Positions 19,216 through 46,900 of a stretch of DNA of 64,000 nt are shown one piece after another; the stretch's first letter is position 1; each line of letters opens with the position of its first letter. The translations under genes and the position numbers were made by a program. The notes beneath the pieces are model-generated. The model was given only the letters and a program-made list of their open reading frames with translations, was not told the DNA's origin and ran no database searches. The stretch comes from an uncultured Verrucomicrobiales bacterium. Lineage in GTDB: Bacteria; Verrucomicrobiota; Verrucomicrobiia; JADLBR01. Location: assembly GCA_964651705.1 (NCBI GenBank), contig CAZYWZ010000023.1:4412-68411 (forward strand), in the 5' to 3' direction.

Positions 19216-20793
19216 ATGAGCACGCATTGCATTCTCTCCGCCGCCGCCGCCCTCTGGCTGGCGATCGCCTGCGCCGCGGCGGCCGCCCCCGCCCCCGCCC
19301 GGCCAAACATCCTGTTCGCCATCGCCGACGACTGGGGGCCACACGCCGGGGCCTACGGCACGAGGTGGGTGAAGACGCCCGCCTTCGACCGCCTCGCGCG
19401 CGAGGGGCTCCTTTTCCTCAACGCCTACACCCCCATGGCAAAGTGCGCCCCCTCCCGCGCCATCGCACTCACCGGGCGGCACCTCTGGCAACTCGAGGAG
19501 GCCGGCAACCACCTGGCCTACTTTCCCGCCAAGTTCAAGAGTTGGCCCGAGGTCCTCACCGAAAAGGGCTGGCACATGGGGATGACCGGCAAGGGATGGG
19601 CCCCGGGCATCGCCAACGATGCCAGCGGAAAACCCCGCCTCATCACCGGCAAACCCTTCGCCCGCCGCAAAGCCGAACCGCCCACGAAGGCCATCTCGCC
19701 CAACGATTACGCCGCCAACTTCATCGACTTCCTCGATGCCGCACCCGAGGGCGCGCCCTGGTGTTTCTGGTGTGGCACGACCGAGCCGCACCGCGCCTAC
19801 GAGTTCCAGTCCGGTGCCAATAAGGCCGGCAAACGCACCGCCGACATCGACCGCGTCCCCGCCTATTGGCCAGATATCGACACCGTGCGCCACGACATGC
19901 TCGACTACGCGCTCGAGGTCGAACACGTCGACGCGCACCTCGCGCGCATGATCGCCGAGCTGGAGAAACGCGGCGCCCTCGACAATACCCTCATCATCGT
20001 CACCAGCGACCACGGCATGCCATTCCCACGCGTCAAGGGCCACGCCTACCACGATTCCAACCATGTCCCCCTCGCCATCCGCTGGGCCCGCGGCATCCAG
20101 AACCCGGGTCGCGCGATCGAGGACTTCGTCGATTTCACCGACATCGCCCCGACCCTCCTCGATGTCGCGGGCATCCCACAGGACCAGACCGGCATGAAGC
20201 CCATCACCGGCAAAAGCTGGCGCCCCATCTTCGCCAGCGACCGCGCGGGAAGGGTCCTCGCCGAGCGCGATCACGTGCTCGTCGGCAAGGAGCGCACCGA
20301 CGTCGGCCGACCCCATGACTGGGGCTACCCCATCCGCGGCATCGTCACCCCCGAGCTCCTCTTCCTCAAAAACTACGAGCCCTCCCGGTGGCCCGCCGGC
20401 AACCCGGAGACCGGTTACCTGGACACCGATGGCAGCCCCACGAAGACCGCCATCTTGGATTTGGGCCGCAGGGACCGCGGCGACCGATTCTGGCGCCTGA
20501 ATTTTGGCATGAGGCCCGCAGAGGAGCTCTACGACCTCAGTTCCGACCCAGATTGTGTGACAAACCTCGCGGCCGAACCCGCGCACGCACAGACCGCGAA
20601 AGCCATGAGGGAACGCATGGAGTCCCTGCTCTCCGCCCAAGGAGACCCACGCATGTCCGGCAAGGGCCATGTCTTCGACGGATACAAACCCACCAACGGC
20701 TCCGGCTTCTACGAGAGTTACATGCGCGGCGAGAACCCCAAGGCCGGATGGGTCGAACCCACGGATTTCGAGAAACAACCCATCAGGCCATAA
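19216..20793 (+). CDS. Sulfatase (Cys-type)
   Basis: Signal peptide. [11 protein letters not shown]. Motif [14 protein letters not shown]. Confidence 0.85.
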
Positions 20794-20796
20794 GAT

Positions 20797-22281
20797 ATGC
20801 GCCCCACAGTCACCTTCCTTTGTCTGGTCCTGGCGGGTAGCGACACCATGCATGCCGCCCCCGGCGCAACGCGTCCCAACATCCTTTTCCTGTTCGCCGA
20901 CGACCAGCGTTTCGACACGATGGGTTGCGCCGGGCACCCCATCGTGCGCACCCCGACGATCGACCGGCTGGCGAGGGAAGGCGTGCGTTTCCAGAACGCC
21001 TTCGTCACGACATCGGTCTGCTGGGTCAGCCGCGCCGTTGTGCTCACCGGGCAGTGGGCGCGTTCCCACGCGCAACGGGACGCCATACCGACGGTCACCC
21101 AGACCGCCATCCAGACCATGTTCCCCGTCGAATTGCGCAAGGCCGGATACCGGACCGGACATTTTGGCAAATGGCACTTCAAGGGGCCGCCGGGCTTTAG
21201 GCCCGAAGAGCACTACGAAGAATTCGAGCACATCGGCCGCAACCCGTACTTCAAGACGCTGCCCGATGGCACGCGGCGACACGAGACCGACCTGATCTGC
21301 GACCGCGGCATCACGTTCATACGCGCACAGCCAAAAGAAAGGCCATTCTGCCTCAATCTCTGGCTCAACGCCGCCCACGCCGAGGACGGCGACCGCCGCC
21401 CAGGCATCGGGCACTACCCGTGGCCGCAATCGGCCGACGGGATGTATGACGGCGTGCCCATCCCCGCGCCGCGCCTCGGCGATCCGGCCATCTATGAGGC
21501 GCACCCTCAATTCCTCAAGGACTCCATCAACCGCCAGCGCTTCTTCTGGGGTTATGACACCCCGGAGAAGTACGCCACGAACCTCCGCGCCTACTACCGC
21601 ATGATCAGCGGCATCGACACCGCCATCGCCCGGGTGCTGGCCGCGCTTCAAGATGCAGGCCTCGCCGGAAATACCATCGTCGTCTACTCCGCCGATAACG
21701 GCTACTATCTGGGGGACCGGGGCTTCCAGGGGAAGTGGTCTCACTTCGAGGAATCCCTGCGCGTGCCCCTCGTGGTTTATGATCCGCGCCTGCCCAAGGA
21801 AAAGCGCGGGCGCGCCCTCGATCCCATGGCGTTAAACGTGGATCTCCCGGCCACGTTCCTTGACTGGGCCGGGGTACCGAGACCCCAAGCCTACGAGGGT
21901 CGCAGCCTCGTCCCCCTCATCGAGGGCCAGCCCGCCCCAGACTGGCGCACCGAATTCTTCTGCGAGCACCTCGATCTCGCGCCAACGCTCACCTGGGAAG
22001 GGATCCGCGGCCAGCGCTATGTCTACGCCCGCTACTTCGACCAGCGGCCCCCCTTCGAATTTCTCCACGACCTGAAATCCGATCCCGACGAGCTGAAAAA
22101 CCTCGCCCCCTATCCCGCCCACGCCGCCGAGCTGGCGGCGATGCGCGCCCTGTGCGATCGCGAGATGAACGCGCGCGGCGGCCCCCTCCTTCCCATGGAC
22201 CAACGCGGCGCCAGCAAACCCGCCCGTGGCAAGGGCAAAGCCAAGGCGAAAATCGACCTCGCGGACCCGAAAACCCCCTGA
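20797..22281 (+). CDS. Sulfatase-family protein with a non-canonical active-site motif (C-W-V-S-R) and a Lys-rich C-terminal tail
   Basis: NILFLFADDQRFD. TTSVCWVSRAVVLTG (Pro at +2 replaced by Val). Tail KPARGKGKAKAKIDLADPKTP. Confidence 0.75.
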   Translation: MRPTVTFLCLVLAGSDTMHAAPGATRPNILFLFADDQRFDTMGCAGHPIVRTPTIDRLAREGVRFQNAFVTTSVCWVSRAVVLTGQWARSHAQRDAIPTVTQTAIQTMFPVELRKAGYRTGHFGKWHFKGPPGFRPEEHYEEFEHIGRNPYFKTLPDGTRRHETDLICDRGITFIRAQPKERPFCLNLWLNAAHAEDGDRRPGIGHYPWPQSADGMYDGVPIPAPRLGDPAIYEAHPQFLKDSINRQRFFWGYDTPEKYATNLRAYYRMISGIDTAIARVLAALQDAGLAGNTIVVYSADNGYYLGDRGFQGKWSHFEESLRVPLVVYDPRLPKEKRGRALDPMALNVDLPATFLDWAGVPRPQAYEGRSLVPLIEGQPAPDWRTEFFCEHLDLAPTLTWEGIRGQRYVYARYFDQRPPFEFLHDLKSDPDELKNLAPYPAHAAELAAMRALCDREMNARGGPLLPMDQRGASKPARGKGKAKAKIDLADPKTP

Positions 22282-22303
22282 TGTCGCATCAACCCGCCCG
22301 ACC

Positions 22304-23659
22304 ATGAGAAACTTTTTCGCGACCGCGCTGACCCTTTCGTCCTTCGGCATCTTCGCCCAATCTTTCGCCGAGCCGTCGCGCCCCAACATCGTCCTCTTCA
22401 TGGCCGATGACTTTGGCTACGAGTGCGTCACCGCCAACGGGGGCCAGTCCTATCAGACGCCCCACCTCGACCGCCTCGCCACCGGCGGCGTGCGTTTCGA
22501 GTCCTGCCACGTGCTCCCGCTCTGCACCCCGACGCGCGTCCAGCTCATGACCGGGCGATTCAACGTCCGCAACTACCTCAACTTCGGCACGCTCCCGAGA
22601 ACGGAGAGGACCTTCGCCAACCTCCTCGCGGACGCCGGTTATGCCACGGCCATCTGCGGCAAGTGGCAACTTGGAAAGGAATCCGACGCGCCGCAGCACT
22701 TCGGTTTCGGGGAAGCCCTTCTCTGGCAGCACACGCGCCGCCCGCCACGCTATGCCAACCCCGGCATCGAGCACAACGGCACCGAAAAGGATTTTAACGG
22801 CGGCGAGTACGGGCCGAAGCTGATCAGCGATTTCGCGCTCGATTTTATCGGGCGGCACCGGGACCGCCCCTTCTTCCTCTATTACCCGATGATCCTCACC
22901 CACGACCCATTCCAGCCCACCCCCGACAGCCCGGATTGGGACCCCAACGCCATCGGGGAAACCGCGAATAGGGATGTGAGGCATTTCGCCGACATGACCG
23001 CCTACATGGACAAGATGATCGGTCGCCTCGACGCCCGGCTCGGCGAACTCGGCATCCGCGACAACACCCTGCTGATGTTCATCGGCGACAACGGCACGCA
23101 CGGGAGCATCACGACCCGCTTCAACGGCAACGAATACCGAGGCGGCAAGGGCACCACCACCAGGCGCGGCACGCACGTCCCCTTCATCGCGAGCTGGCCC
23201 GCCATCATCCGGCAAGGCCGCGTGAACCGCGACCTCATCAGCGCCGCCGATTTCTTGCCCACGATCTGCGCCGCCGCCGGCGTCCCCGTGCCTCCCGGCA
23301 TCGATGGCGTCAGCTTCCTGCCGCAGCTCCGCGGCGACAGGGGCGCACCTCGGGAGTGGATCTACTGCTGGTATTCGCCGCGCCAGAAGGCCGACATGAC
23401 GGTGCGCGAGTTCGCATTCGACCATGAACACAAGCTGTATCGCGACGGTCGGTTCTTTGACCTCAGGGCGGATCCGTTCGAGGAGACTCCCCTGCAAACC
23501 GCCGCACTCAAGGGCGCCGCAGCCTCCGCGGCCGCCAGGCTGCAAGGCGTCCTCGCCCAGTTCAAGGACGCCCGCCCCCCCGAACTCGACCGGCAGTTCG
23601 AGCAATCCCTGGCAGATGAGCCCGCGCCCAAGAAAGAGAAACGGAATAGGAAGAAATAG
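22304..23659 (+). CDS. Sulfatase (Cys-type) with a Lys-rich C-terminal tail
   Basis: Signal peptide MRNFFATALTLSSFGIFAQS. NIVLFMADDFG. Motif LPLCTPTRVQLMTG. Tail PAPKKEKRNRKK. The track ORF starts at 22226; the Met at 22304 precedes the signal peptide. Confidence 0.85.
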   Translation: MRNFFATALTLSSFGIFAQSFAEPSRPNIVLFMADDFGYECVTANGGQSYQTPHLDRLATGGVRFESCHVLPLCTPTRVQLMTGRFNVRNYLNFGTLPRTERTFANLLADAGYATAICGKWQLGKESDAPQHFGFGEALLWQHTRRPPRYANPGIEHNGTEKDFNGGEYGPKLISDFALDFIGRHRDRPFFLYYPMILTHDPFQPTPDSPDWDPNAIGETANRDVRHFADMTAYMDKMIGRLDARLGELGIRDNTLLMFIGDNGTHGSITTRFNGNEYRGGKGTTTRRGTHVPFIASWPAIIRQGRVNRDLISAADFLPTICAAAGVPVPPGIDGVSFLPQLRGDRGAPREWIYCWYSPRQKADMTVREFAFDHEHKLYRDGRFFDLRADPFEETPLQTAALKGAAASAAARLQGVLAQFKDARPPELDRQFEQSLADEPAPKKEKRNRKK

Positions 23660-23679
23660 TCGCCCAACCGAGCACCCCC

Positions 23680-25200
23680 ATGAAAAACATCCTCACCCTC
23701 TTAGCCTCGTACTGCCTCCTGGCCCCATTCGCCACGGCATCGCCACCCCCGAACATCGTCGTCTTCCTAGTCGACGACATGGGCGTGATGGATACCTCCG
23801 TGCCTTTTCTGACCGGCGCCGACGGCAAGCCGAAACGCTACCCGCTGAATGATCTCTATCGCACGCCGGCCATGGAACGCCTCGCGGGCCGCGGCATCCG
23901 CTTCAACAACTTCTGCGCCATGAGCGTGTGCTCCCCCACGCGCATCTCGATCATGACCGGCCAGAACGCGGCCCGGCACCGCACCACGAATTGGATCAAC
24001 CCCGACAAGGATAACGCCGGCCCCAGCGGACCGCCAGACTGGAACTGGAAGGGCCTCGCGCGCGGCGACGTGACCCTCGCCTCCATGCTCCGCGCCCAGG
24101 GCTTCCGGACGATCCACGTCGGCAAGGGCCACTTCGGCCCGCGCGATGCCGAGGGCGGCGACCCGTCCAACATCGGCTTCGAGGTCAACGTCGGCGGCGC
24201 GTCCATGGGCGCGCCCGGCAGCTATTACGGGAAGGAGAACTTCGGCCACGGCACCAAGCGCGCCCACAACGCCGTCCCCCACCTCGAGAAATACCATGGC
24301 ACCGATATCTTCCTCACCGAGGCGCTCACCATCGAGGCCAAGGCACGCGTCTCGGACGCGGTGCGGGATGGGAAACCCTTCTTCCTGTACATGGCCCACT
24401 ATGCCGTGCACGCGCCGTTCCAGTCCGATCCGCGCTTCGCCGACCATTACATCAACTCCGGCAAACCGAAGGACGCCCAGGCCTTCGCCACACTCATCGA
24501 AGGCATGGACAAGTCGCTGGGCGATCTCCTCGACCACCTCGATTCGCTGGGGATCGCCGAGAATACCCTGGTCCTGTTCCTAGGCGACAACGGCAGCGAC
24601 GCGCCACTGGGCCACCAGCACGAGGTGGCATGCGCCGCACCCCTCCGGGGAAAGAAGGGTGCGCACTACGAGGGTGGCATGCGCGTGCCCTTCATCGCGG
24701 CCTGGGCCAATCCCTCCTCCTCCAACACCAACCAACAGCGCCTGCCAATACCCGCCGCCTCCCTCCAGGGCCAGCAGGCCGCCGTCCAAGACATCTTCCC
24801 GACCATACTCGACCTCCTGGATGTCCCTCCCCCCAAGGGCCACGTGGTCGATGGCTTCAACCTGGCCACCCTGCTCTCCGGAAAGCCCGATCCCAGTCGG
24901 CCCGAGGCATTCCTCATGCACTACCCTCACTCGCCACACCGGAGCGAATACTGGACCAGTCTCCGGGATGGCGCATGGAAAGTCATCTATCACTACTTCC
25001 CCTCCGAGGCCTCCGGCGGCTCCCACTACCAGCTCTATAATATCAAGGACGATCCCTTCGAGCAAAACGACCTCGCCACCTCCCGGCCCGATGAACTCCG
25101 CCGCATGATGAAGAATCTCGCCGCCGAGCTAGAGCGGCACGACGCCGCCTATCCCATCGACAAGGGCGCACAGACCCCGCTGAAACCACGGTTGCCGTAG
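23680..25200 (+). CDS. Sulfatase (Cys-type)
   Basis: Signal peptide MKNILTLLASYCLLAPFATA. NIVVFLVDDMG. Motif MSVCSPTRISIMTG. Confidence 0.88.
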   Translation: MKNILTLLASYCLLAPFATASPPPNIVVFLVDDMGVMDTSVPFLTGADGKPKRYPLNDLYRTPAMERLAGRGIRFNNFCAMSVCSPTRISIMTGQNAARHRTTNWINPDKDNAGPSGPPDWNWKGLARGDVTLASMLRAQGFRTIHVGKGHFGPRDAEGGDPSNIGFEVNVGGASMGAPGSYYGKENFGHGTKRAHNAVPHLEKYHGTDIFLTEALTIEAKARVSDAVRDGKPFFLYMAHYAVHAPFQSDPRFADHYINSGKPKDAQAFATLIEGMDKSLGDLLDHLDSLGIAENTLVLFLGDNGSDAPLGHQHEVACAAPLRGKKGAHYEGGMRVPFIAAWANPSSSNTNQQRLPIPAASLQGQQAAVQDIFPTILDLLDVPPPKGHVVDGFNLATLLSGKPDPSRPEAFLMHYPHSPHRSEYWTSLRDGAWKVIYHYFPSEASGGSHYQLYNIKDDPFEQNDLATSRPDELRRMMKNLAAELERHDAAYPIDKGAQTPLKPRLP

Positions 25201-25215
25201 CGCCCCCGCTCGTAG

Positions 25216-25233
25216 TGCCGCGTTCACGCGGCA
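25216..25233. repeat. 18-bp perfect palindrome TGCCGCGTTCACGCGGCA (copy 1, 16 nt after the sulfatase stop)
   Basis: Arms tgccgcgt / acgcggca are exact reverse complements. An identical 18-mer recurs at 25600-25617. Confidence 0.6.
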
Positions 25234-25349
25234 GCCCGCGCGCCACCGGAGACGCCTGAAGGGCCTGTCGGTCAATTCCAGACCGCGCGGGAGTGCCGTG
25301 AGCCGGTATACCATCGCGACGCCATCGTGTGCTCCGATTCCGTCGGGCG

Positions 25350-25525
25350 GGCCTTTGGACTGCGGTGGCAGAACCCCGAACGGGGTGGCGACACCGCTTT
25401 GGATCCGCGGCCGGATCGCCTCGGGCGATCGGAGCGCGGGCGTCGGACCTGTCGCGCAGGTCCCGGCTCCGCCGGACGAAAAAGCGGCGTCGACGCTTCG
25501 CTTTGCCGCCGCACTCCACACTCGG
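25350..25525 (+). repeat. About 175-nt structured intergenic repeat element, copy 1 (candidate ncRNA or MITE-like element)
   Basis: About 90% identical over the first about 100 nt to 63675-63845. 5-prime arm ttggactgcggtggcag (25355-25371) pairs with 25503-25520 in 13/17 positions (two of the mismatches are wobble-compatible). Internal short hairpin gatcgcc-tcg-ggcgatc. Confidence 0.5.
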
Positions 25526-25599
25526 CCTCCGCTCCATCGTGATCGTCGAATAAATCGACACGCCATGAAGGCGTCACCACGAACCTCCCCCACTCGCTG

Positions 25600-25617
25600 T
25601 GCCGCGTTCACGCGGCA
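25600..25617. repeat. 18-bp perfect palindrome TGCCGCGTTCACGCGGCA (copy 2, upstream of the next sulfatase)
   Basis: Identical to 25216-25233. The two copies bracket the 175-nt repeat element. Confidence 0.6.
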
Positions 25618-25704
25618 TTCCCGCTGGACCCCCGGTTGCCCGACGATTACCCTGTCGCCGTGATGCGTCCGGTTCGCACAGGGCTGGCTGCCGCAGGAGC
25701 TGAG

Positions 25705-27231
25705 ATGCGGGCGGGCTCTTCCCTCGGGACCCGCTCCGCCAGACTCCTGCCCCTCCCGTTCCTATTCGCGTTCTCGCTCTCATTCACCGTCGCCGCCGAC
25801 CGGCCCAACATCATCCTCATGATGGGCGACGACCACGGATGGGAGGAGACCGGCTACAACGGCCACCCCCATGTGAGGACGCCCGTGCTCGACGAGATCG
25901 CCGCCACCGGATTCAAATTCAATCACTTCTACGCCGCCCACCCCTCCTGCTCCCCCACCCGCGCCAGCTTTCTCACCGGCCGCCACCCGAATCGCATGGG
26001 CACTTTCGCCCCGGGCTGGTCCTTCCGTCCCGAGGAAATCACGATCGCCCACCTCCTCGCAAGGGCCGGCTACCACTGCGCGCATCTCGGGAAGTGGCAC
26101 GTCGGCGCGGTCAGGAAGGACTCCCCCGTCAATCCCGGCGCCATGGGTTTCCACGAGTGGCTCTCGCACGACAACTTTTTCGAGATGAATCCATCGCTGT
26201 CCCGCGATGGCGCGCCGCCGGAGCCTTTCGAGGGCGAGAGCTCCGACATCCTCGTCGGCGAGGCCATCCGCGTCATCGACCGGGCCCGCGTTGCCGGCAA
26301 GCCCTTCTTCCAGGTGATCTGGTTCGGGTCGCCGCACGAGCCCTACAGCGGCCTGCCCGCTGACCTCGCCCTCTACGACGACCTCCCCGCGAAGTACCCG
26401 AAGCCCGTGAAGCTCACGTCCAACCAGACCGGCGGCCCCGTCACCCGCCCACAGGGCGAGGTCATCCGCGAGCGCTACGCCGAAATCACCGCGATGGACC
26501 GCGCCATCGGCCGCCTCCGCTCGCATCTGGCCAAAGGCGGCCTCCGAGAAAATACGCTCCTGTTCTACTGCGGCGACAACGGCACCTCGCCCGACGCCGC
26601 ACTCGGCTTCCCCCACCGCGGCACCAAGGGTCAGGTCTACGAGGGAGGCACCTTGGTCCCCGGCCTCATCGAATGGCCCGCCCGCATCCCCGGACCCCGA
26701 TCCAGTCCCTTCCGCGCCTCCACCAGCGACCTCCTTCCCACCCTAGCCGCCATCACCGGGACGCCATTGCCCGATCGGCCACTCGACGGCATCGACCTCA
26801 CCGCCGCCCTAGATGGCAAACTCACCACCCGCCCCACCCCACTGCATTTCTGGCAATACCCTAACGGGCGCTTCGCCCGATCAAAAGCCGAACCCTATAT
26901 CGACCCCAGATTGCAGGAGGGCACCACCCCGCTCGTCAAACTCTCGGGAGGGAAAGCGACGCGCGATTTCCTCAACTATCGGCAGCCCGCGCCCACCGAT
27001 GCCGATTACCTCGGCCCGCGCTCGATCATCGAGGGCCGCTTCAAGCTCGTCATACATGAGCGGAAGAACGCCGCACCCGCGCGCGAGCTCTTCGACCTCG
27101 ACGCCGACCCCGGCGAAAATCACGACCTCGCCACAAGCCAACCCGCACTCGCCGAAGATATGCAAACCCGCCTCCGCGCCTGGCAGGATGGCGTCCTGCG
27201 CAGCCTCACCGGCGCGGACTACCCGAAATGA
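25705..27231 (+). CDS. Sulfatase (Cys-type)
   Basis: Signal peptide MRAGSSLGTRSARLLPLPFLFAFSLSFTVAA. NIILMMGDDHG. Motif HPSCSPTRASFLTG. The track ORF begins at 25636 (TTG); the Met at 25705 gives a canonical signal peptide. Confidence 0.85.
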   Translation: MRAGSSLGTRSARLLPLPFLFAFSLSFTVAADRPNIILMMGDDHGWEETGYNGHPHVRTPVLDEIAATGFKFNHFYAAHPSCSPTRASFLTGRHPNRMGTFAPGWSFRPEEITIAHLLARAGYHCAHLGKWHVGAVRKDSPVNPGAMGFHEWLSHDNFFEMNPSLSRDGAPPEPFEGESSDILVGEAIRVIDRARVAGKPFFQVIWFGSPHEPYSGLPADLALYDDLPAKYPKPVKLTSNQTGGPVTRPQGEVIRERYAEITAMDRAIGRLRSHLAKGGLRENTLLFYCGDNGTSPDAALGFPHRGTKGQVYEGGTLVPGLIEWPARIPGPRSSPFRASTSDLLPTLAAITGTPLPDRPLDGIDLTAALDGKLTTRPTPLHFWQYPNGRFARSKAEPYIDPRLQEGTTPLVKLSGGKATRDFLNYRQPAPTDADYLGPRSIIEGRFKLVIHERKNAAPARELFDLDADPGENHDLATSQPALAEDMQTRLRAWQDGVLRSLTGADYPK

Positions 27232-27235
27232 TATC

Positions 27236-28600: not shown

Positions 28601-28620
28601 CCGCACCAGAACACCGCCCC

Positions 28621-30132: not shown

Positions 30133-30217
30133 CGCGCGGCTCCGTCCTCGACCGCGCCGCCCGACACGCCCGCGCGTCGGATCGCCGGGGAGGCGACCGG
30201 GAACGTCACGACAGACC

Positions 30218-32050: not shown

Positions 32051-32257
32051 CGTCTGCCTGCCTTTCCAGTTGGGCCGAGTATGGCAAACAGAGGATCAGA
32101 CACCAGCCCGACATGAAGTCTGTTCGCAGCGGTGCCTTCGGACTAGGACCAGCTGTTACGCGAGGATTTGGTCGGGCCATTTTCCCTTGGCAGATCCTCC
32201 CCTGACCCCCAGCCTAAAGGACAGAATCGGCCTTCGGTTCACCAGCAGGAGACCCGC

Positions 32258-35532: not shown

Positions 35533-35571
35533 CGCTCCGCCGCGCCCATCGAGCGCCCCTGCATCCATGAC

Positions 35572-36975
35572 ATGAGCCCAGCCCTCCAAGCCGCATTGCT
35601 TCTCCTCTGCCTGCCCGAGGCGCACGCCGCGCAGCAACCAAACTTCCTGCTGATCATCGCCGACGATTGCACCTATCGCGACCTGGGCACCTACGGCGGC
35701 CAGGCGAAGACCCCGCACCTCGACCGGCTGGCAACCGAGGGCATGACATTCACCCGCTGCTTCCAGGCCGCACCGATGTGCTCCCCCACGCGCCATTGCC
35801 TCTATACCGGACTCTACCCGGTCAAGTCCGGCGCCTATCCCAACCACACGATGGCCCACGACTGGGTCAGGAGCATCGCCCATTACCTCCAGGCCGCCGG
35901 CTACCGCACCCACCTCTCCGGGAAGACCCACATCAAACCCGAGTCCGTCTTCCCATTCGAGTATTCCGTCCGCGCGGGCGACGGCAATCCCGACCCCGAC
36001 GCCCTCGCGACGGCCCTGCGCAGCAGCACCGCATCAAACGCCCCTTTCCTCTTCATCGCCGCCTCCCACGAACCACACACCCCCTGGGATAAAGGCGATC
36101 CTTCGGCCTATCCCCCGGCCACCTTGAAACTCCCCCCGGTGCTCGTCGATTCCCCCGACACCCGAGAGGGATTCTCCCGCTACCTCGCCGAGATCACCTA
36201 CTTCGACGCCCAGGTCGGAGAAATCCTCGCCCTCCTCGATAAATACGGCGCCCGTGACACCACCTTCGTCATCGTCTTGAGCGAGCAGGGCAACTCTTTC
36301 CCCTTCGCCAAGTGGACGTGTTACGACGCGGGCCTCCAAAGCGCGTGCGTCGTCCGATGGCCCGACAGGGTTAAACCCGCCTCGACCAGCGACGCGCTGG
36401 TGGAGTATGCCGACGTCGTCCCCACCTTCCTCGAGGCCGCCGGCATCCCCCGGCCCGACATCCTCGACGGCCGCAGTTTCCTCCCCGTGCTGACCGGCGC
36501 CGCCACGGCACACAAGGGCCATGTCTTCGGCCTGCAGACCACCCGCGGCATCAACAACGGCTCCGATCACTACGGCATCCGCAGCGTCCGCGACGCACGC
36601 TACCGCTATATATGGAATCTCACGCCCGAGGTCACCTTCGAAAACGCCGCCACCAACGACCCCACCTTCAAGACCTGGAAACAGATGGCCGCCGCCGGCG
36701 ACGCGCACGCCGCGCGCCTCGTCCACGACTACCAGCATCGGCCCGCCGAGGAACTCTACGATGCCGAGGCCGACCCGTGGAACCGCACCAACCTAATCGC
36801 CAATGCGAAATTCGCCCCCGCCCGCGACGCCCTCCGCGGCAGCCTCGACGCCTGGATGAAACAGCAGGGCGACGAGGGCCAGCCCACCGAAATGAAGGCG
36901 CTCGAGCGCATGCCCCGCGGCGAGAAACGCCAGGCAAAGTCAAAAAAGAAGAAAGACCGGAAAGCCAAACCATGA
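35572..36975 (+). CDS. Sulfatase (Cys-type) with a Lys-rich C-terminal tail
   Basis: Signal peptide MSPALQAALLLLCLPEAHA. NFLLIIADDC. Motif APMCSPTRHCLYTG. Tail GEKRQAKSKKKKDRKAKP. Confidence 0.85.
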   Translation: MSPALQAALLLLCLPEAHAAQQPNFLLIIADDCTYRDLGTYGGQAKTPHLDRLATEGMTFTRCFQAAPMCSPTRHCLYTGLYPVKSGAYPNHTMAHDWVRSIAHYLQAAGYRTHLSGKTHIKPESVFPFEYSVRAGDGNPDPDALATALRSSTASNAPFLFIAASHEPHTPWDKGDPSAYPPATLKLPPVLVDSPDTREGFSRYLAEITYFDAQVGEILALLDKYGARDTTFVIVLSEQGNSFPFAKWTCYDAGLQSACVVRWPDRVKPASTSDALVEYADVVPTFLEAAGIPRPDILDGRSFLPVLTGAATAHKGHVFGLQTTRGINNGSDHYGIRSVRDARYRYIWNLTPEVTFENAATNDPTFKTWKQMAAAGDAHAARLVHDYQHRPAEELYDAEADPWNRTNLIANAKFAPARDALRGSLDAWMKQQGDEGQPTEMKALERMPRGEKRQAKSKKKKDRKAKP

Positions 36976-38426
36976 GCCGCCACCTCGCCATCGTATGCCT
37001 ATCCCTCCTGGCCTCCCACTGGACCTCGCCCGCGGCTCCCCCACCGAATATCGTCGTGGTCTTCATCGATGACATGGGATGGGGCGACTTCTCTTGCTTC
37101 GGGAACAGGGACGCCAGCACACCGAACGTCGACCGCCTCGCCTCCCAGGGCATTCGCTTCTCGCAGTTCTACGTGAACTCGCCGATCTGCTCCGCCTCGC
37201 GCTGCGCCCTGACGACCGGCCAGTACCCTCAGCGCTGGCGCATCACCTCCTTCCTGAACAACCGCGCCGACAACGAGCGCCGCGGCATGGCGCAGTGGCT
37301 GGATCCGGCCGCCCCGACGCTCGCCCGATTCCTGAAGGCGGCCGGCTACGCCACCGGCCATTTCGGCAAATGGCATCTCGGCGGCCAGCGCGATGTCGAT
37401 GACGCCCCGCCGATCACGGCCTACGGTTTCGACGCTTCCCTCACCAACTTCGAGGGCATGGGGCCAAAGCTCCTCCCTCTCACCCTTAAGCCCGGCGACA
37501 GAGAACCCGGCCGCATCTGGGCCGACGCCGAACGCCTCGGCAAACCCGTCGCCTGGATGCTCCGCTCGAAGGTCACCACAGGCTTCATCGACGCGGCGCT
37601 CGAATTCGTCGCCACCGCGCAGCGCGCCAAGAAGCCCTTCTACATCAATCTCTGGCCCGACGATGTCCATAGCCCATTCTGGCCGCCGGTGGACCGATGG
37701 GCGGACGACAAGCGAGGGTTGTATCTCGCCGTGCTCGAGGAGATGGATCGCCAGCTTGGCAAGCTCTTTGACCACATTCGCGACGACGCATCCCTGCGCG
37801 ACAACACCCTCATCCTCGTCTGCTCCGATAACGGCCCCGAACCCGGCGCCGGTAGCGCAGGAAGCCTCCGCGGCGCCAAGACCACCCTATTCGAGGGCGG
37901 CATCCGGTCCCCCCTCGTCGCCTGGGGCCCCGGGATCATAGCGCCCGAACGCGCCGGCGCGCACGATGCGACTTCCGTCTTTGCCGCGTTCGATCTCGTG
38001 CCTTCCCTGCTCACCATCGCGGGCGCAAAACGCCCCGCAGGCGTCGCCTTCGACGGCGAGGACATCTCCGCCACCCTGCTCGGCAAGGCCACCACCTCGC
38101 GACAGGCTCCCATCCACTGGCGCCGCCCCCCAGACCGAAAATCCTGGCGTCCGATGATTGCCGACACACTTCCCGACCTAGCCGTTCGCGACGGCTCATG
38201 GAAACTCCTCTGCGATTACGATGGCTCCCGCCCCCTGCTCTACGATCTCGATAAGGACCCCGAGGAATCCCTAAACTTGGCGGCGAGCCATCAGGACATC
38301 GTCGCCCGCCTCACCGCGGCCGCTTTAGCCTGGCACCAGTCGATGCCCGCGGACAATGGCCCCGCGCTCGGAGTGGGGCCCCCGCCACAACCCGGAAAGC
38401 AAAAGAAGAAAATGTCCAAGAAATGA
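36972..38426 (+). CDS. Sulfatase (Cys-type; motif variant C-S-A-S-R) with a Lys-rich C-terminal tail
   Basis: Signal peptide MSRHLAIVCLSLLASHWTSPA. NIVVVFIDDMGWGD. Motif SPICSASRCALTTG. Tail PQPGKQKKKMSKK. In frame with track ORF 36612..38426. Confidence 0.85.
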   Translation: MSRHLAIVCLSLLASHWTSPAAPPPNIVVVFIDDMGWGDFSCFGNRDASTPNVDRLASQGIRFSQFYVNSPICSASRCALTTGQYPQRWRITSFLNNRADNERRGMAQWLDPAAPTLARFLKAAGYATGHFGKWHLGGQRDVDDAPPITAYGFDASLTNFEGMGPKLLPLTLKPGDREPGRIWADAERLGKPVAWMLRSKVTTGFIDAALEFVATAQRAKKPFYINLWPDDVHSPFWPPVDRWADDKRGLYLAVLEEMDRQLGKLFDHIRDDASLRDNTLILVCSDNGPEPGAGSAGSLRGAKTTLFEGGIRSPLVAWGPGIIAPERAGAHDATSVFAAFDLVPSLLTIAGAKRPAGVAFDGEDISATLLGKATTSRQAPIHWRRPPDRKSWRPMIADTLPDLAVRDGSWKLLCDYDGSRPLLYDLDKDPEESLNLAASHQDIVARLTAAALAWHQSMPADNGPALGVGPPPQPGKQKKKMSKK

Positions 38427-40303
38427 GAAAGGGTATTGCCGCCTGCATCCTATTCGGCCCCCTCGCGCTGCCGGCGAGCGCCGCCGATCGTCCCAACATC
38501 CTTTGGCTGACCGCCGAGGACCTGAGCCCGCACCTCGGTTGCTATGGCGATGCGGACGCGACGACGCCCCGCCTCGATGCCTTCGCGCGCCAGTCCTTGA
38601 GATTCGACCGCGCCTTCGCCACGGCGCCCGTCTGTTCCCCTGCCCGGTCGTGCCTCATCACGGGCATGTTCGCCACCTCGCTCGGCACCCAGCGCCTCCG
38701 GTCGAAATTCCCGGTCCCCGGGGAGGTCATCCCCTTCCCGGCCCTCCTGCGACAGGCGGGGTGGTACTGCTCGAACAACGTCAAGACCGACTATAACGTG
38801 CGGGACGAGGCCGCCTTCATCCGCGCCGCATGGGACGACTGCTCCTCCAAGGCCCACTGGCGCCCCCGGCGCAAAGACCAACCCTTTTTCTCGGTGTTCA
38901 ATTTCATGACCACCCACCAGAGCCGCACCAGCGTGTGGCCACACGAGGAATTCGAACGGGAGATCCGCTCCAAACTCGACCCCGCCGAGCGCCATGACCC
39001 GGCCCGCGTCACACTCCCCCCCTATTACCCCGATACCGCCGAGGCACGCCGCGCCTGGGCCCGCTACCACGATTGCATCACCCTCATGGACAGGCAGGCC
39101 GGCGAGATCTTGGACCAGCTCGAGGCGGATGGCCTCGCCGAAGACACCATCGTATTCTTCTTCGGAGACCACGGCATGGGCATGCCACGCGGCAAGCGAT
39201 GCCTCCACGATTCCGGCATGCGCGTGCCACTCCTCGTGCGCATCCCAAAGCAATGGGCGCATCTCGCGCCATCGCCGCCCGGCTCCACCACGGATCGCCT
39301 CGTGAGCTTTGTCGACTTCGCGCCCACCGTCCTGAGCCTTTTCGGGATCCCTGCCCCGGCACATCTCCAGGGAAGTGCCTTCCTCGGCACGCATGCCGCC
39401 GCGCCGCGCGAGTTCATCCATGGCGCCCGCGACCGCGTTGACGAGGCCTTCGACGTCTCCCGGAGCGTCCGCGACGCACGATGGCTCTACATCCGCAACT
39501 TCATGCCACACCTCCCCTGGATGCAGCCGGAATCTTTCTCGGATGGCTCCACGTTCCGGAGGGAACTCAAGCGCCTCGCCGCGGATGATGCGCTTCCACC
39601 CGCCGCCCGGCCCTATGCCACCGCGCCGCGGCCACTCGAGGAACTCTACGACACCGCGGCGGACCCCCACCAGATCCATAACCTCGCCTCCGATGCCGCG
39701 CACATCGATCGATGCGAGCGCATGCGCGCCGAACTCCGCCGCTGGCAACTCGAGACCCGCGATGCCGGCTTTTTCACCGAACCCGACCTCTGGTCCACCC
39801 TGAAGCCCGGCGAGACGCCTCGCGCCACCACTGCCGATCCCGCGCGCTACCCGCTGGAACGGCTCCTCGATGTCGCCGGCGAGGTCGGTCGCCAGGACGC
39901 CGCGCCAAAGCAGCGCGGATGGCTGCACGATCCCGATCCCTCCGTCCGCTACTGGGCCGCCGTCGGACTCCACGCCAATGCCTCTCCCAAAGAGGCAGAC
40001 CGAGCCGCCCTCCGCCAAACCCTCGCCGATGCCTCGCCCGCCGCGCGCATCGAGGCCGCCGCCGCACTGGCACGCCATGGCGACGCCGCGCCCGCCATGC
40101 CGGTCCTCGCAGCCGCCCTCCACCACGAAACCCGCGAGGTCGTGCTCCACGCCGCCCGCGCCCTCGAACTCCTCGGGCCCATCGCCAAACCCCTCCATCC
40201 GGAAATGCGCGACGCGCTCGCCATCGCCAGCGAGGCCGAAAAGACCGGTGACGATATCGCCATGTTCGTCCGATTCAGCCTGGAGGCCGCACTGAATCCA
40301 TGA
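38423..40303 (+). CDS. Sulfatase (Cys-type) fused to a C-terminal HEAT-repeat domain
   Basis: Signal peptide. NILWLTAEDLSPHLG. Motif APVCSPARSCLITG. C-terminal DPDPSVRYWAAVGLHA...SPAARIEAAAALARHGD...ETREVVLHAARALELLG (HEAT / PBS-lyase-like repeats). Confidence 0.85.
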   Translation: MRKGIAACILFGPLALPASAADRPNILWLTAEDLSPHLGCYGDADATTPRLDAFARQSLRFDRAFATAPVCSPARSCLITGMFATSLGTQRLRSKFPVPGEVIPFPALLRQAGWYCSNNVKTDYNVRDEAAFIRAAWDDCSSKAHWRPRRKDQPFFSVFNFMTTHQSRTSVWPHEEFEREIRSKLDPAERHDPARVTLPPYYPDTAEARRAWARYHDCITLMDRQAGEILDQLEADGLAEDTIVFFFGDHGMGMPRGKRCLHDSGMRVPLLVRIPKQWAHLAPSPPGSTTDRLVSFVDFAPTVLSLFGIPAPAHLQGSAFLGTHAAAPREFIHGARDRVDEAFDVSRSVRDARWLYIRNFMPHLPWMQPESFSDGSTFRRELKRLAADDALPPAARPYATAPRPLEELYDTAADPHQIHNLASDAAHIDRCERMRAELRRWQLETRDAGFFTEPDLWSTLKPGETPRATTADPARYPLERLLDVAGEVGRQDAAPKQRGWLHDPDPSVRYWAAVGLHANASPKEADRAALRQTLADASPAARIEAAAALARHGDAAPAMPVLAAALHHETREVVLHAARALELLGPIAKPLHPEMRDALAIASEAEKTGDDIAMFVRFSLEAALNP

Positions 40304-42195
40304 GCCTTGATCGCCCCATGAACCTCACCTCGCATGCCAACCACCGGATCCGCGCGGGTGCGCGGCATCTCATCCTCCCACTGCTGCTGGCGTCCCGGAT
40401 CGCGTCGGCGGACGAACGTCCCAATATCCTCTGGATCACCAGCGAGGACAACAGCCCCTACCTTGGATGCTATGGCGATCCGCTCGCGCAGACGCCGAAC
40501 CTCGACCGCCTCGCCCGCGAGGGCCTCCGCTATCGCAACGCATTCGCCAACGCGCCCGTCTGCTCCAGCGCGCGCACCACCCTCATCACCGGCATGTACG
40601 CCTGTTCCCTCGGCGCCCACAACCACCGCAGCAAGGTCGCCATCCCCGATGGATTTCCGCTCTACCCCCAGGTCTTGCGCGCGTCCGGCTACTACTGCTC
40701 GAATAATTCCAAGACCGACTACAACCTTTCCGACAGGCGCGACGTCTGGGACGAGAGCAGCAAAAAGGCCCACTACAAGAATCGCGCGCCGGGACAGCCG
40801 TTTTTCGCCGTATTCAACTTCACCACCAGCCACGAGAGCCAGGTGGCGCCGAAGCCGGGCAAGACCGCGTTTCGCGTCCCGCCGGAAAAAGTCCCGCTCC
40901 CGCCGTATCACCCCGACACGCCGGAGATCCGGCGCGATTGGGCCAACTACTATGACCAGATGACCCTGTTGGATGCCCAGGTCGGCGAAGTCTTGGACGA
41001 GCTCGCCGGCGCCGGTCTCGACGACGACACCATCGTATTCTACTACGGCGATCACGGCGGCGCCCTGCCCCGCGGAAAACGCAACATCCACGACTCGGGC
41101 ACCCGCGTCCCCCTGATCATCCGCATCCCCAAGAAGTGGTCCCACCTCTCCCCCGCCGCTCCAGGCGAATGGGCCGATGACCTCGTCAGTTTCGTCGACT
41201 TCCCCGCGACCGTCCTCAGCCTCTGCGGGGTGCCCGTCCCGCCGAATTACGAGGGCCGCGCCTTCCTCGGAGCCGCCAAGGCCCCTCCCCGGACACGCGT
41301 CTTCCTGTTCCGGGGCCGCATGGACGAGCGCTACGATATGGTCAGGGCCATACGGGACAAAGACGCCCGATACGTGCGCAACTATTCGCCCCATCGGCCC
41401 TGGGGCCAGCACTACAGCTATCCCTTCGAGGTGCTCCCCAGCATGCGGTCCTGGTCGGAGACCTTCACCGCGGGGAAATGCAACGAGACGCAGGCGCGAT
41501 ATTGGCGACCCAAGCCCGGAGAGGAATTCTATCAGATCGCCGCGGACCCGTTCGAGATCCGCAATCTGGCCCATGACCCCGGATGCGCCGCCCGGATCGA
41601 GACACTCCGCGCCGCCCTGCGCGACGAGATCCTCAAGACGCGCGACGTCGGATTCATCCCCGAGGGAATGTTCCCGCGACTGGCCGGCGACAAGACCATC
41701 TACGACTATGCCCGGGGCGACGCCTATCCCATCCGCAAGATCCTCGACCTCGCCGACCGCGCCAGCGACAGCGATCCCAGGCACCTCAAGGACTTCATCG
41801 CCGCCCTCGATGACCCCCATCCGGTCGTCCGCTATTGGGCCGCGACCGGATGCCTCGTGCTCAAGGCCGATGCCGCGCCCGCGAAAGACAAACTCCGGGC
41901 CGGGCTCTCCGACGAGTGGGCCGACGTCCGCGTCGCCGCCGCCGAATCTATCGCCTACCTCGGCGAACCAAAGTCCGCCCTCGATGCCATCGCCGCGGTG
42001 CTTCGCGAGGGCAACCTCCACGAGGCGCTCGCCGCCCAGAATGCCCTCGACTTCATGTGGCAGGCAGGCCACGTGACCCTCGCCGACGCGCGGGCCCTCG
42101 TCAGGGACATGGACCTCCCCGAACCCGGGAACCGCATCCCGCGATACCTCCTGAATACCTCAGAATCCACGAAGCCATGCGACCCATTCCCCTAA
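40300..42195 (+). CDS. Sulfatase-family protein (motif variant C-S-S-A-R) fused to a C-terminal HEAT-repeat domain; tandem paralog of the previous gene
   Basis: NILWITSEDNSPYLG. Motif APVCSSARTTLITG (Ser replaces Pro at +2). C-terminal DPHPVVRYWAATGCLV...DVRVAAAESIAYLGEPKSALDAIAAVL HEAT-like repeats. Confidence 0.8.
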   Translation: MSLDRPMNLTSHANHRIRAGARHLILPLLLASRIASADERPNILWITSEDNSPYLGCYGDPLAQTPNLDRLAREGLRYRNAFANAPVCSSARTTLITGMYACSLGAHNHRSKVAIPDGFPLYPQVLRASGYYCSNNSKTDYNLSDRRDVWDESSKKAHYKNRAPGQPFFAVFNFTTSHESQVAPKPGKTAFRVPPEKVPLPPYHPDTPEIRRDWANYYDQMTLLDAQVGEVLDELAGAGLDDDTIVFYYGDHGGALPRGKRNIHDSGTRVPLIIRIPKKWSHLSPAAPGEWADDLVSFVDFPATVLSLCGVPVPPNYEGRAFLGAAKAPPRTRVFLFRGRMDERYDMVRAIRDKDARYVRNYSPHRPWGQHYSYPFEVLPSMRSWSETFTAGKCNETQARYWRPKPGEEFYQIAADPFEIRNLAHDPGCAARIETLRAALRDEILKTRDVGFIPEGMFPRLAGDKTIYDYARGDAYPIRKILDLADRASDSDPRHLKDFIAALDDPHPVVRYWAATGCLVLKADAAPAKDKLRAGLSDEWADVRVAAAESIAYLGEPKSALDAIAAVLREGNLHEALAAQNALDFMWQAGHVTLADARALVRDMDLPEPGNRIPRYLLNTSESTKPCDPFP

Positions 42196-43541
42196 CCGCC
42201 TGTCTGCTGGCGGTCGCCGTCACCCACGTCGTCGCCGATGCGCCAAAACCCAACGTCATCGTCATACTGTCCGATGACCAGGGCTCCGTAGACCTCGGCT
42301 GCTATGGCGCAAAGGACCTGCACACCCCGAACACCGACGCCCTCGCGGCCCGCGGCATCCGCTTCACCCAATTCTATTCCGCGGCGCCCGTGTGCTCCCC
42401 CTCGCGCGCCGGCCTGCTCACCGGACGCTGGCCCGTCCGCGCCGGCGTGCCCAACAATTGCGCCTCGCAGCAGGGGGGCAAAGGCGCGCTGCCTCCCGAA
42501 GAGATCACGATGGCGGAGGTCTTCAAGGCCGCAGGATACGCCACCGCCCACATCGGGAAGTGGCACGTCGGCTATACGCCCGAGACCTCGCCGCTATCCC
42601 AGGGTTTCGATCAGAGCTTTGGCCACATGGGTGGTTGCATCGACAACTATTCGCACTTCTTCTACTGGAGCGGCCCCAATATCCACGACCTCTGGCGCAA
42701 CGGCGCGGAGGTCTTCCGCGATGGGGCCTACTTCCCCGATCTCATGGTCGCGGAGGCCGCACGCTTCATCGCCGAGAATCGGCACCGTCCCTTCTTTATC
42801 TACTACGCGATAAACACACCCCACTATCCCTATCAGGGCGACAAGAAATGGCTCGATCACTTCAAGCATCTCCCGCACCCGCGCAACCTCTACGCCGCCT
42901 TCCTTGCCGCGCAGGATGAGCGCCTCGGCGCCCTCTTCGCGAAGGTCGAAGCACTCGGGCTGGCGGAGCGCACCATCATCGTCTTCCAGAGCGACAACGG
43001 GCATTCCACGGAGGAACGCGCGCATTTCGGCGGCGGGAGCGCGGGCCCCTACCGCGGCGCGAAGTTCAGCCTCTTCGAGGGTGGGATACGCCTCCCCGCC
43101 ATTATCTCTTGGCCCGGCACCCTGCCCCAAAACGAGGTCCGCGATCACGTGGCGCACGCCTGCGACTGGTTGCCCACCCTCGCGGCACTCGCCGGGGTCC
43201 AGCCGCCCGACACGCGCCTCGACGGCCGCAACCTCGTCCCCATCCTCCGCGACCCCAAGGCGCCCGGCCCGCACACCGCGCACGCGCTCCACTGGCAAGT
43301 AGGAGACGGCCCAAATGCCGACTGGGCCGTGCGCGACGGCGAATGGAAACTGCTCGGCAATGCCCGCGATACCGGCGGCGGCATCGCCTGGGGACCCGGC
43401 GCAACCAAGAAGGGCGGCGACCGCATACCCCTCTTCCTCGCCAATATCACGGACGACCCCGCCGAAACAACCAATCTCGCCGACCGCCACCCCGACATCG
43501 TCGCCCGCCTCAGGCAATTGCACGAAGACCACCTCCGCTGA
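42177..43541 (+). CDS. Sulfatase (Cys-type)
   Basis: Signal peptide MRPIPLTACLLAVAVTHVVADA. NVIVILSDDQGSVD. Motif APVCSPSRAGLLTG. In frame with track ORF 41835..43541. Start overlaps the previous gene. Confidence 0.85.
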   Translation: MRPIPLTACLLAVAVTHVVADAPKPNVIVILSDDQGSVDLGCYGAKDLHTPNTDALAARGIRFTQFYSAAPVCSPSRAGLLTGRWPVRAGVPNNCASQQGGKGALPPEEITMAEVFKAAGYATAHIGKWHVGYTPETSPLSQGFDQSFGHMGGCIDNYSHFFYWSGPNIHDLWRNGAEVFRDGAYFPDLMVAEAARFIAENRHRPFFIYYAINTPHYPYQGDKKWLDHFKHLPHPRNLYAAFLAAQDERLGALFAKVEALGLAERTIIVFQSDNGHSTEERAHFGGGSAGPYRGAKFSLFEGGIRLPAIISWPGTLPQNEVRDHVAHACDWLPTLAALAGVQPPDTRLDGRNLVPILRDPKAPGPHTAHALHWQVGDGPNADWAVRDGEWKLLGNARDTGGGIAWGPGATKKGGDRIPLFLANITDDPAETTNLADRHPDIVARLRQLHEDHLR

Positions 43542-43542
43542 T

Positions 43543-43692
43543 TGCCCCGCGCTGCAACTCTTCGACCTCGATGCCGACCCCGGCGAATCGAGACCCGCCC
43601 GCGACGCCCAAGTCATCCGAAAACTCCGCGGGATGGCCGTCATGTTCCAGGAGGAGATGACCGCGCCACCCGCGCGCGCCGGCGGATCCTAA
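43543..43692 (+). pseudogene. Relic of a sulfatase C-terminus (no start codon, about 49 codons)
   Basis: Immediately after the stop of the preceding sulfatase, frame +1 reads LQLFDLDADPGESRPARDAQVIRKLRGMAVMFQEE. The LFDLDADPGE block is identical to the C-terminal region of the sulfatase at 25705..27231 (ELFDLDADPGEN). Confidence 0.4.
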
Positions 43693-43722
43693 AATCCCGC
43701 GCCCCACCCTTTATGGGAATGC

Positions 43723-44126: not shown

Positions 44127-44143
44127 TCGGCTCAGGTCCGGCC

Positions 44144-46867: not shown

Positions 46868-46900
46868 AAGCCTTCCGCAATCCTCATGGCCGGGGGCACC

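Follow-up and report, generated by a model that had tools for sequence, protein, structure and literature searches.

The 20 sulfatase genes of the window

We analysed a stretch of 64,000 nt (hereafter, the window) from contig CAZYWZ010000023.1 of an uncultured Verrucomicrobiales bacterium (assembly GCA_964651705.1), which contains a long array of consecutive sulfatase genes. Every sizeable open reading frame (ORF) of the window was scanned against Pfam, and exactly 20, here numbered S01 to S20 along the sequence, matched the Sulfatase family PF00884 with 124–205 bits (E 1e-36 to 1e-60), the gathering cut-off for this family being 25 bits. Most of the 20 also possess the SGSH_C region. A profile hidden Markov model (HMM) constructed from these proteins recovered the same 20, and no extra ones, from the six-frame ORF set; both searches agree with the original prediction, made from the sequence alone, of 20 sulfatase genes over approx. 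5.3–49.9 kb. Gene starts were moved to the methionine preceding the leader peptide, and the resulting lengths agree with the gene calls in public assemblies.

Fifteen of the 20 genes (S04–S18) occupy positions 19216–43541 as an unbroken run; S11 is on the minus strand and the other 14 are on the plus strand. The intergenic distances are, in order, 3, 22, 20, 504, 4, 20, 85, 207, -4, 39, -4, -4, -4 and -19 nt, with four ATGA start/stop overlaps, and the almost gap-free, mostly plus-strand run of 24 kb described in the original prediction was therefore confirmed. Sulfatase density in the array is 6.2 genes per 10 kb, against a median of approximately 0.8 per 10 kb in 58 comparison loci. The highest sulfatase share of genes on record is 8.4% (PMC6388578), and at such a share the probability of 15 consecutive sulfatases would be approximately 0.084 to the power of 15 per position. 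The spacing suggests four transcription units, namely S04–S07, S08–S10, S11 on the opposite strand and S12–S18; the gaps of 3–39 nt together with the four overlaps imply co-transcription and translational coupling, and suggest that S12–S18 form a translationally coupled unit.

The first of these putative units is opened by S04 (19216–20793, 525 amino acids (aa), motif at the nucleophile site CAPSR), which matched PF00884 as did all the others; E-values for this family are given last in the brackets below, and genes are on the plus strand unless stated. It is followed by S05 (20797–22281, 494 aa, CWVSR, 1.2e-43), S06 (22304–23659, 451 aa, CTPTR, 2.1e-50) and S07 (23680–25200, 506 aa, CSPTR, 3.3e-41). 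The second comprises S08 (25705–27231, 508 aa, CSPTR, 4.1e-47), S09 (27236–28600, 454 aa, CSPTR, 1.2e-59) and S10 (28621–30132, 503 aa, CSPTR, 5.8e-51), the 503-aa call of the latter matching public assemblies. S11 (30218–32050, minus strand, CAPTR, 1.3e-54) is an ORF of 610 aa, for which the public gene call is 599 aa with the start at 32017. The last unit includes S12 (32258–33790, 510 aa, CGPSR, 2.9e-53), S13 (33787–35532, 581 aa, CCPTR), S14 (35572–36975, 467 aa, CSPTR, 1.6e-37), S15 (36972–38426, 484 aa, CSASR, 6.9e-46), S16 (38423–40303, 626 aa, CSPAR), S17 (40300–42195, 631 aa, CSSAR) and the final intact gene of the array, S18 (42177–43541, 454 aa, CSPSR, 1.7e-60). Pfam placed HEAT repeats in both S16 (C-terminal, HEAT_2) and S17.

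Upstream of the array are S01 (5284–6837, 517 aa, CNPCR, 1.8e-43), S02 (10722–12536, 604 aa, CTPTR, 1.6e-54) and S03 (16406–18991, 861 aa, CSPSR, 5.6e-50), which is fused at the C-terminus to a GHL15 glycosyl-hydrolase-like domain (PF14885, E 2.1e-23). Downstream, on the minus strand, are the sulfatase-like S19 (46901–48271, 456 aa, CRPAL, 1.3e-43) and S20 (48281–49858, 525 aa, CGPSR, 9e-46), the latter with a full SGSH_C domain (PF16347, E 1.7e-60).

The spacer of 504 nt between S07 and S08 (25201–25704), which divides the first plus-strand block, is structured: a 19-nt hairpin (GTGCCGCGTTCACGCGGCA) is present in it twice without a mismatch (at 25215 and 25599; 0.05 chance copies expected), and its fold is more stable than those of shuffled controls (z = -3.0). 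It had no Rfam match even at E <= 1, and a small element, an RNA or a regulatory region is conceivable. In the window as a whole, neither an Rfam match at gathering threshold nor a tRNA was found.

With the best match per protein in the PDB taken as a proxy for the subfamily (and not a formal SulfAtlas HMM or phylogenetic assignment), the genes are related to various branches of the S1 family. S16 and S17 were nearest to three S1_8 enzymes, S1_8A, S1_8B and S1_8C (E 5e-72 to 3e-64), and then to the human sulfamidase SGSH, S16 being thus S1_8-like; these three enzymes are galactose-2-sulfatases of the lambda-carrageenan pathway (PMC12549532). S12 and S01 were nearest to 6hhm (1.6e-62), followed by iduronate-2-sulfatase (IDS, 5e-49) and choline sulfatases, which makes S12 S1_7-like (iduronate-2-sulfatase or ulvan P18 type). 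S13 aligned over its full length with 7all (E 3.9e-117) and Pseudomonas aeruginosa AtsA (1hdh, 7.5e-94), both of which we take to belong to S1_4. For S05 and S20, the nearest structure was the sulfatase module of the GH78/sulfatase enzyme of the ulvan pathway (6hr5, E 4.6e-86 with S05, which is S1_25-like), and for S09 and S18 the S1_19/S1_16 carrageenan sulfatases 6bia, 6prm and 9fo1 (approximately 1e-73 to 1e-71), the S1_19/S1_16-like clade. Only distant solved relatives (1e-34 to 1e-58) were found for S04 (S1_8A, 6e-34), S08 and S10 (3e-44 for S08), S15 and S03, and S19. When ten array members were compared with NCBIfam, the matches were limited to generic models (arylsulfatase, choline-sulfatase and PehA), all far below their cut-offs, and no named family was assigned.

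Each gene had been predicted to carry its own signal peptide and a C-x-P-x-R motif. The first part of this statement stands, by a heuristic call other than SignalP: a leader of 22–40 aa with a hydrophobic core precedes the P-N-(I/V) start of the mature domain in all 20 proteins. The second part needs correction: a cysteine occupies the nucleophile position in 20/20, but the motif itself was found in 16/20 (12/15 in the array), the exceptions being S05, S15, S17 and S19. The broader [CS]-x-[PA]-x-R signature is present in 17 of the 20 (16 with proline and S15 with alanine); S05 and S17 retain both cysteine and arginine, and S19 has no arginine. Across SulfAtlas S1, the proline is 87% conserved and mostly replaced by alanine otherwise, and the arginine is 99% conserved (PMC5066984). 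Variants at the third position were also seen in the S05-like gene of locus L019 (CGVSR), in the S17 ortholog of locus L008 (CSAAR) and in 6hr5, the nearest solved structure to S05 (CAASR), and alanine, valine, serine or threonine stands there in approximately 10% of sulfatase ORFs with a locatable motif in all fetched loci. Since orthologs and the nearest structure vary likewise, the non-canonical motifs look like lineage traits rather than decay. The presence of cysteine in all 20 fits the near absence of Ser-type enzymes from bacteria of the Planctomycetes–Verrucomicrobia–Chlamydiae (PVC) superphylum (PMC6388578).

By alignment, 18 genes have DD at the first metal site (ED in S16 and S17), and 18 have DN or DH at the second (EQ in S14, DQ in S20). 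All 20 retain the lysine of the G-K-x-H motif; S19 (GKWWE) lacks the histidine of this motif, and in S04, S16 and S17 the histidine is displaced. In S14, SEQG replaces SDNG/GDHG, i.e. Glu-Gln occupies the metal-ligand Asp-Asn/Asp-His site; its orthologs (approximately 60% identical) occur near S16-like genes in the metagenome-assembled genomes (MAGs) L037 and L064 of Akkermansiaceae.

S19 is part of a highly conserved clade: its homologs are 67–89% identical, and their sources carry the annotations Verrucomicrobia, Planctomycetes or Luteitalea. In this clade, leucine replaces the catalytic-site arginine that is 99% conserved in S1, and tryptophan replaces the histidine of G-K-x-H: CRP[SA]L was found in 119 of 120 homologs and GKWWE in 120 of 120, and the nearest solved structure is distant (best match 9e-39). 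Clade members were located in L083 (6001–7377), L084 (6001–7380) and L085 (6001–7392), always among sulfatase genes. A fixed partner was ruled out, as the neighbours are sulfatases of varying type and not S20 orthologs. Judged by these replacements, the clade may be a version of the sulfatase fold with a novel type of catalysis, which would operate without the arginine and histidine, or without formylglycine.

The original prediction had further noted that no maturation enzyme is encoded nearby, and this was confirmed: Pfam scans found neither a formylglycine-generating enzyme (FGE, PF03781) nor a radical-SAM/anaerobic sulfatase-maturating enzyme (anSME) domain in any gene of the window, and the leftover gaps are too short to accommodate one. 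The locus is thus not of the operon type with a linked maturase (atsA–atsB or chuA–chuR) within these 64 kb. In sulfatase-rich PVC bacteria, maturases are unlinked and few, with 7–8 FGE genes per 20–129 sulfatases and one anSME per approximately 500 (PMC4807772, PMC6388578), and their absence here is therefore expected and not peculiar.

Divergence, strain-level turnover and genomic neighbourhood

The sulfatases of the window are dissimilar to one another. Local identity (best high-scoring segment pair) among all pairs is 22–47%, and the best paralog of each gene is 25–45% identical. The closest full-length pair is the adjacent S16/S17 (45% over 599 residues), which looks like an old tandem duplicate and is the sole adjacent pair to do so; the other mutual best pairs (S08/S10, S09/S18, S03/S15, S01/S12 at 37%, and S05/S20) are non-adjacent and 34–38% identical. 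Recent tandem amplification was ruled out, as no paralog pair exceeds the 45% identity of S16/S17. DNA repeats are confined to conserved motifs (30–180 nt, 60–85% identity) and none is long. The array order and gene lengths were reproduced in contigs assembled independently from five sequencing runs (SRR14787577-80 and SRR31594168), and none of the 20 ORFs is truncated or has a damaged domain. The genes are hence divergent, as originally stated, and not near-identical copies arising from a collapsed repeat. Because orthologs in other genomes are 59–76% identical, versus 22–45% for the paralogs, paralog divergence is far older than the lineages compared.

Translated in six frames, the window has 18 instances of a conserved C-terminal motif, L/F-Y/F-D-x-x-x-D-P-x-E, 17 of them at the ends of sulfatase genes; the 18th (43558–43587) is located just past the stop codon of S18 and in a different frame. 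The origin of this fragment became clear from locus L081, a contig from run SRR30765736 with 93–95% nucleotide identity to the window over S16–S18, S19–S20 and the genes beyond. At the position of the fragment, S18 is followed in L081 by three complete sulfatase genes (459, 460 and 460 aa), and window positions 43544–43697 match the 3′ end of one of them (L081 13328–14710) with 92.9% nucleotide identity over 149 coding and 5 further nucleotides. The plus-strand relic (43544–43692) therefore consists of the last 149 coding nucleotides, stop codon included, of a deleted gene for a 460-aa sulfatase. Since it aligns to the 3′ end of the third L081 gene, the lineage of the window has lost 4,012 bp, i.e. 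two genes and most of a third, and the deletion junction lies on a 4-nt microhomology (CCCC) beside the S18 stop codon.

Further differences from L081 were found downstream. The segment with the PEP-CTERM repeat gene (43697–46875 of the window) is replaced in L081 by a gene for a 535-aa sulfatase. In L081, moreover, S20 is separated from the next gene that both sequences share by a segment of 6.5 kb, which contains a fusion of a major facilitator superfamily (MFS) transporter and a sulfatase, RF3 and a DksA-like gene. The fusion protein (L081 5335–8391, 1018 aa, CTPCR) belongs to the part absent from the window. From position 5335 to the end of the locus, all ten called genes of L081 are sulfatases (16 kb seen), and, if it is collinear with the window upstream, the run in this strain possibly reaches approximately 22 consecutive sulfatases. 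Identity of the extra L081 genes to paralogs in the window does not exceed 49%, and among themselves it is 35–36%; they are old and divergent, which points to loss or replacement instead of recent duplication. A relic had been predicted at 43543–43692 as a sign of ongoing birth and death of paralogs: the relic is real and the death of genes is borne out by the 4,012-bp deletion, but birth is not, the extra genes being old paralogs.

Among species-representative genomes, S16 had its best matches (64–75% identity) in MAGs with the labels Verrucomicrobiae, Verrucomicrobiaceae, Prosthecobacter and Brevifollis; MAGs of Planctomycetota (61–67%) came next. Prosthecobacter, Brevifollis and Verrucomicrobiaceae are freshwater or soil lineages. 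In the Verrucomicrobiaceae MAGs, 7–8 sulfatase genes are present per 18–22 kb around the S16 ortholog, and orthologs of S12, S06, S17, S13, S01 and S14 are found near S16 orthologs with 59–76% identity. Among them, S06 orthologs (62–68%) are located beside those of S16 in L006 and L008, S12 orthologs (75–76%) were found in L006 and L014, and S01 orthologs (72–76%) in L018, L083 and L085. In three Planctomycetota MAGs (L014, L020 and L052), an S13 ortholog (65–67%) is located directly upstream of an S16 ortholog (61–65%), and a 2.7-kb Planctomycetaceae contig (L024) combines an S13 ortholog (67%) with a partial match to S16. Judged by gene neighbourhood, this implies a conserved S1_4–S1_8 gene pair, a transfer between Planctomycetota and Verrucomicrobiota, or both. 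The recurring adjacency of S13 and S16, with S12, S06 and S14 near S16, argues for a functional linkage; on this evidence, members of the array appear to move between genomes and some associations persist. In a Prosthecobacter-labelled MAG (L007, 5396–8228), S12-like and S03-like genes beside the S16 ortholog are fragmented, as pseudogenes or by assembly frameshifts.

Among the other genes of the window, a PAS/AraC-type gene (6959–7780, minus strand; HTH_18 and PAS_4) is the sole regulator gene and a candidate for the control of the locus. A GH120-like beta-helix protein with a GH120 insertion domain and DUF1565 is encoded at 14476–16311 on the plus strand; its gene is the sole marked G+C dip of the window (55% versus 65%), which suggests that it was acquired more recently. 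Elsewhere the G+C content is 64–68% almost throughout. A mobile-element island was ruled out, as the integrase at 219–1166 is of XerC/D type and located beside topA and dprA, and G+C is uniform except for the GH120-like gene. The PEP-CTERM protein between relic and S19 (44144–46867, minus strand, 907 aa) consists largely of approximately nine tandem repeats of 156 nt (52 aa). Beyond S20, a giant PSCyt2/PSD1 protein (DUF1549/DUF1553; 54497–59491, minus strand) has Ala-rich internal repeats with periods of 276–294 nt and 70–72% G+C. Downstream of it is a DUF1501 protein (53007–54410, minus strand), a member of the alkaline-phosphatase/sulfatase clan, the longest ORF of which (start 54500) overlaps the PSCyt2/PSD1 gene by 4 nt, the public start being 54410. 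This gene pair adjoins sulfatases in Prosthecobacter fusiformis too (L083). The 90% cluster of the DUF1501 protein includes a member with the annotation ‘Verrucomicrobiae bacterium’. The PSCyt2/PSD1, DUF1501 and PEP-CTERM genes fit a PVC host.

Proposed function and alternative explanations

Taken together, the gene content and its conservation make it probable that the locus is a sulfatase-only cluster encoding periplasmic Cys-type enzymes, which would jointly desulfate one or more complex sulfated glycans. The proteins would be exported by the Sec pathway to the periplasm or cell surface, and their active-site cysteine converted to formylglycine in trans, by an FGE or anSME from another part of the genome. 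Each enzyme would be responsible for a single kind of sulfate ester, removing it regiospecifically and probably in an exo-acting manner; the set as a whole would strip complex sulfated glycans, the degradation of which would be completed by glycosidases encoded elsewhere. Rearrangement or transfer presumably brought the ancient paralogs of the set together, S16/S17 being the one old tandem duplication, and the loss and exchange of whole genes between strains likely continue to reshape it.

Several observations weigh against joint desulfation. The content of the array differs even between strains that are 93–95% identical (the window and L081), and sulfatase order is shuffled in other Verrucomicrobiaceae; variable content and order weaken the idea of one fixed pathway. 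No glycoside hydrolase (GH), transporter or binding protein is encoded inside the 24-kb array, and the GH120-like protein, the GHL15 fusion and a GH85 nearby, where an esterase is also encoded, point to no one substrate. The mix of subfamilies, as far as the closest structures indicate, is heterogeneous and spans many of them, and it does not reveal any single substrate. Rare residues stand at the third motif position in three array members, which renders their maturation uncertain. Between 18.9 and 50.7 kb, sigma-70 promoter-like sites did not exceed chance and no intergenic intrinsic terminators were detected, both scans being uninformative for this phylum, so that it is the spacing that carries the proposed operon structure. 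The single specialised substrate envisaged in the original prediction is an inference that was not supported: the array has no GH or transporter, its content varies even among close relatives, and the sequence does not allow a substrate to be named.

Some of these observations favour another explanation, that the locus is a hot spot of one gene family, where sulfatases with unrelated substrates pile up through recombination at homologous motifs and through insertions and deletions, without functional coupling. Whole genes are gained and lost at strain level (e.g. the 4.0-kb deletion at a 4-nt microhomology, or the sulfatase replaced by the PEP-CTERM gene), and the shuffled order in other Verrucomicrobiaceae, the lack of GH and transporter genes in the array and the heterogeneous subfamilies are all compatible with it. 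It accounts less well for the four ATGA overlaps and the spacing of 3–39 nt, which imply co-transcription and translational coupling, and for the associations of S13 with S16, and of S12 and S06, which recur across genomes and even phyla. Moreover, Kim et al. found the adjacency of sulfatases to be far above random expectation and proposed selection for co-expression (PMC4807772). We consider such a hot spot unlikely, although it is the main alternative.

Sulfur scavenging, in which sulfate would be released from organosulfates under sulfate limitation, as by the classical arylsulfatases of soil, and glycans would not serve as a carbon source, is very improbable. It could be invoked as S13 is nearest to AtsA-type S1_4 arylsulfatases and the lineages of the relatives are from freshwater or soil, where sulfate can be scarce. 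However, one or two enzymes would suffice for this purpose, which leaves 15–20 divergent subfamilies without a ready justification. Several of the enzymes are similar to sulfatases specific for carbohydrates, some members are fused to carbohydrate-active domains or have them as neighbours (GHL15 on S03, the GH120-like protein and GH85), and the window has no sulfate or sulfonate transporter and no cys/ssu-type genes. An assembly artefact from collapsed or chimeric repeats, or a set of mostly dead genes, can practically be dismissed: beyond the 149-nt relic and the four non-canonical motifs nothing in its favour was found, whereas paralogs of at most 45% identity without long DNA repeats, five runs concordant in order and lengths, 20/20 full-length ORFs with intact domains and the retention of the non-canonical motifs in orthologs all contradict it.

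Comparison with known sulfatase systems

The array has its closest parallels in the sulfatase clusters of PVC bacteria, such as Rhodopirellula and other Planctomycetes, Lentisphaera, Kiritimatiellales (Pontiella) and marine Verrucomicrobiota, which likewise encode many Cys-type, signal-peptide-bearing S1 sulfatases. The host of the present array is apparently a member of Verrucomicrobiaceae, a freshwater or soil family, whereas the well-studied cases are marine. As in the array, neighbouring genes in those clusters are dissimilar (approximately 27–29% identity) and resemble their orthologs from further PVC genomes more than they do each other, operon-like co-orientation and fusions with HEAT_2 or GH domains occur, FGE and anSME are encoded elsewhere, and the turnover of members is high (PMC4807772, PMC6388578). 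What distinguishes the array is its uninterrupted run of 15 sulfatases, and of at least ten in L081, in contrast to the pairs and short clusters, usually mixed with GH, described previously (PMC4807772, PMC6388578).

Polysaccharide utilisation loci (PULs) of Bacteroidota for carrageenan, ulvan, mucin and glycosaminoglycans also co-encode several S1 subfamilies, which in those systems desulfate one glycan stepwise. Unlike in PULs, no gene of the window has a SusC, SusD or TonB-receptor domain, and the array is devoid of GH, so that its substrate is not inferable from partner enzymes. We know of no PUL with nearly as many sulfatases as the array. The lambda-carrageenan PUL, for example, has three S1_8 and two S1_15 enzymes (PMC12549532). 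With SulfAtlas S1 the proteins share the PF00884 fold, the N-terminal DD metal site, the cysteine nucleophile in C-x-P/A-x-R at the helix start, GK(W)H, DN/DH and the C-terminal LYDLxxDPxE; they depart from it in S19, which has neither the arginine nor the histidine, and in S05 and S17, with valine and serine, respectively, at the position where proline is 87% conserved (PMC5066984).

A bolder interpretation is that the locus, together with its longer version in L081, is the longest uninterrupted sulfatase-only run described and a distinct, stand-alone ‘desulfation super-operon’ and that, separately, the S19 clade is a new catalytic variant; we regard this interpretation as unlikely. If true, a super-operon around a conserved S1_7–S1_4–S1_8 core in non-marine Verrucomicrobiaceae would point to an unrecognised, heavily sulfated glycan in freshwater or soil, and the Arg-less S19 clade could be of the greater enzymological interest if active. 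The turnover of sulfated glycans, which are resistant to degradation, depends on sulfatases with mostly unknown specificities. The locus offers a panel of 15–20 divergent, apparently co-transcribed enzymes of a little-studied and probably non-marine Verrucomicrobium for discovery and also illustrates how such clusters are built up and eroded, with natural strain variants already indicating dispensable members. All in all, the locus is a large and extreme member of the known PVC-type sulfatase clusters and not a new kind of system, its most novel aspects being the purity and length of the run, the likely non-marine host and the S19 clade.

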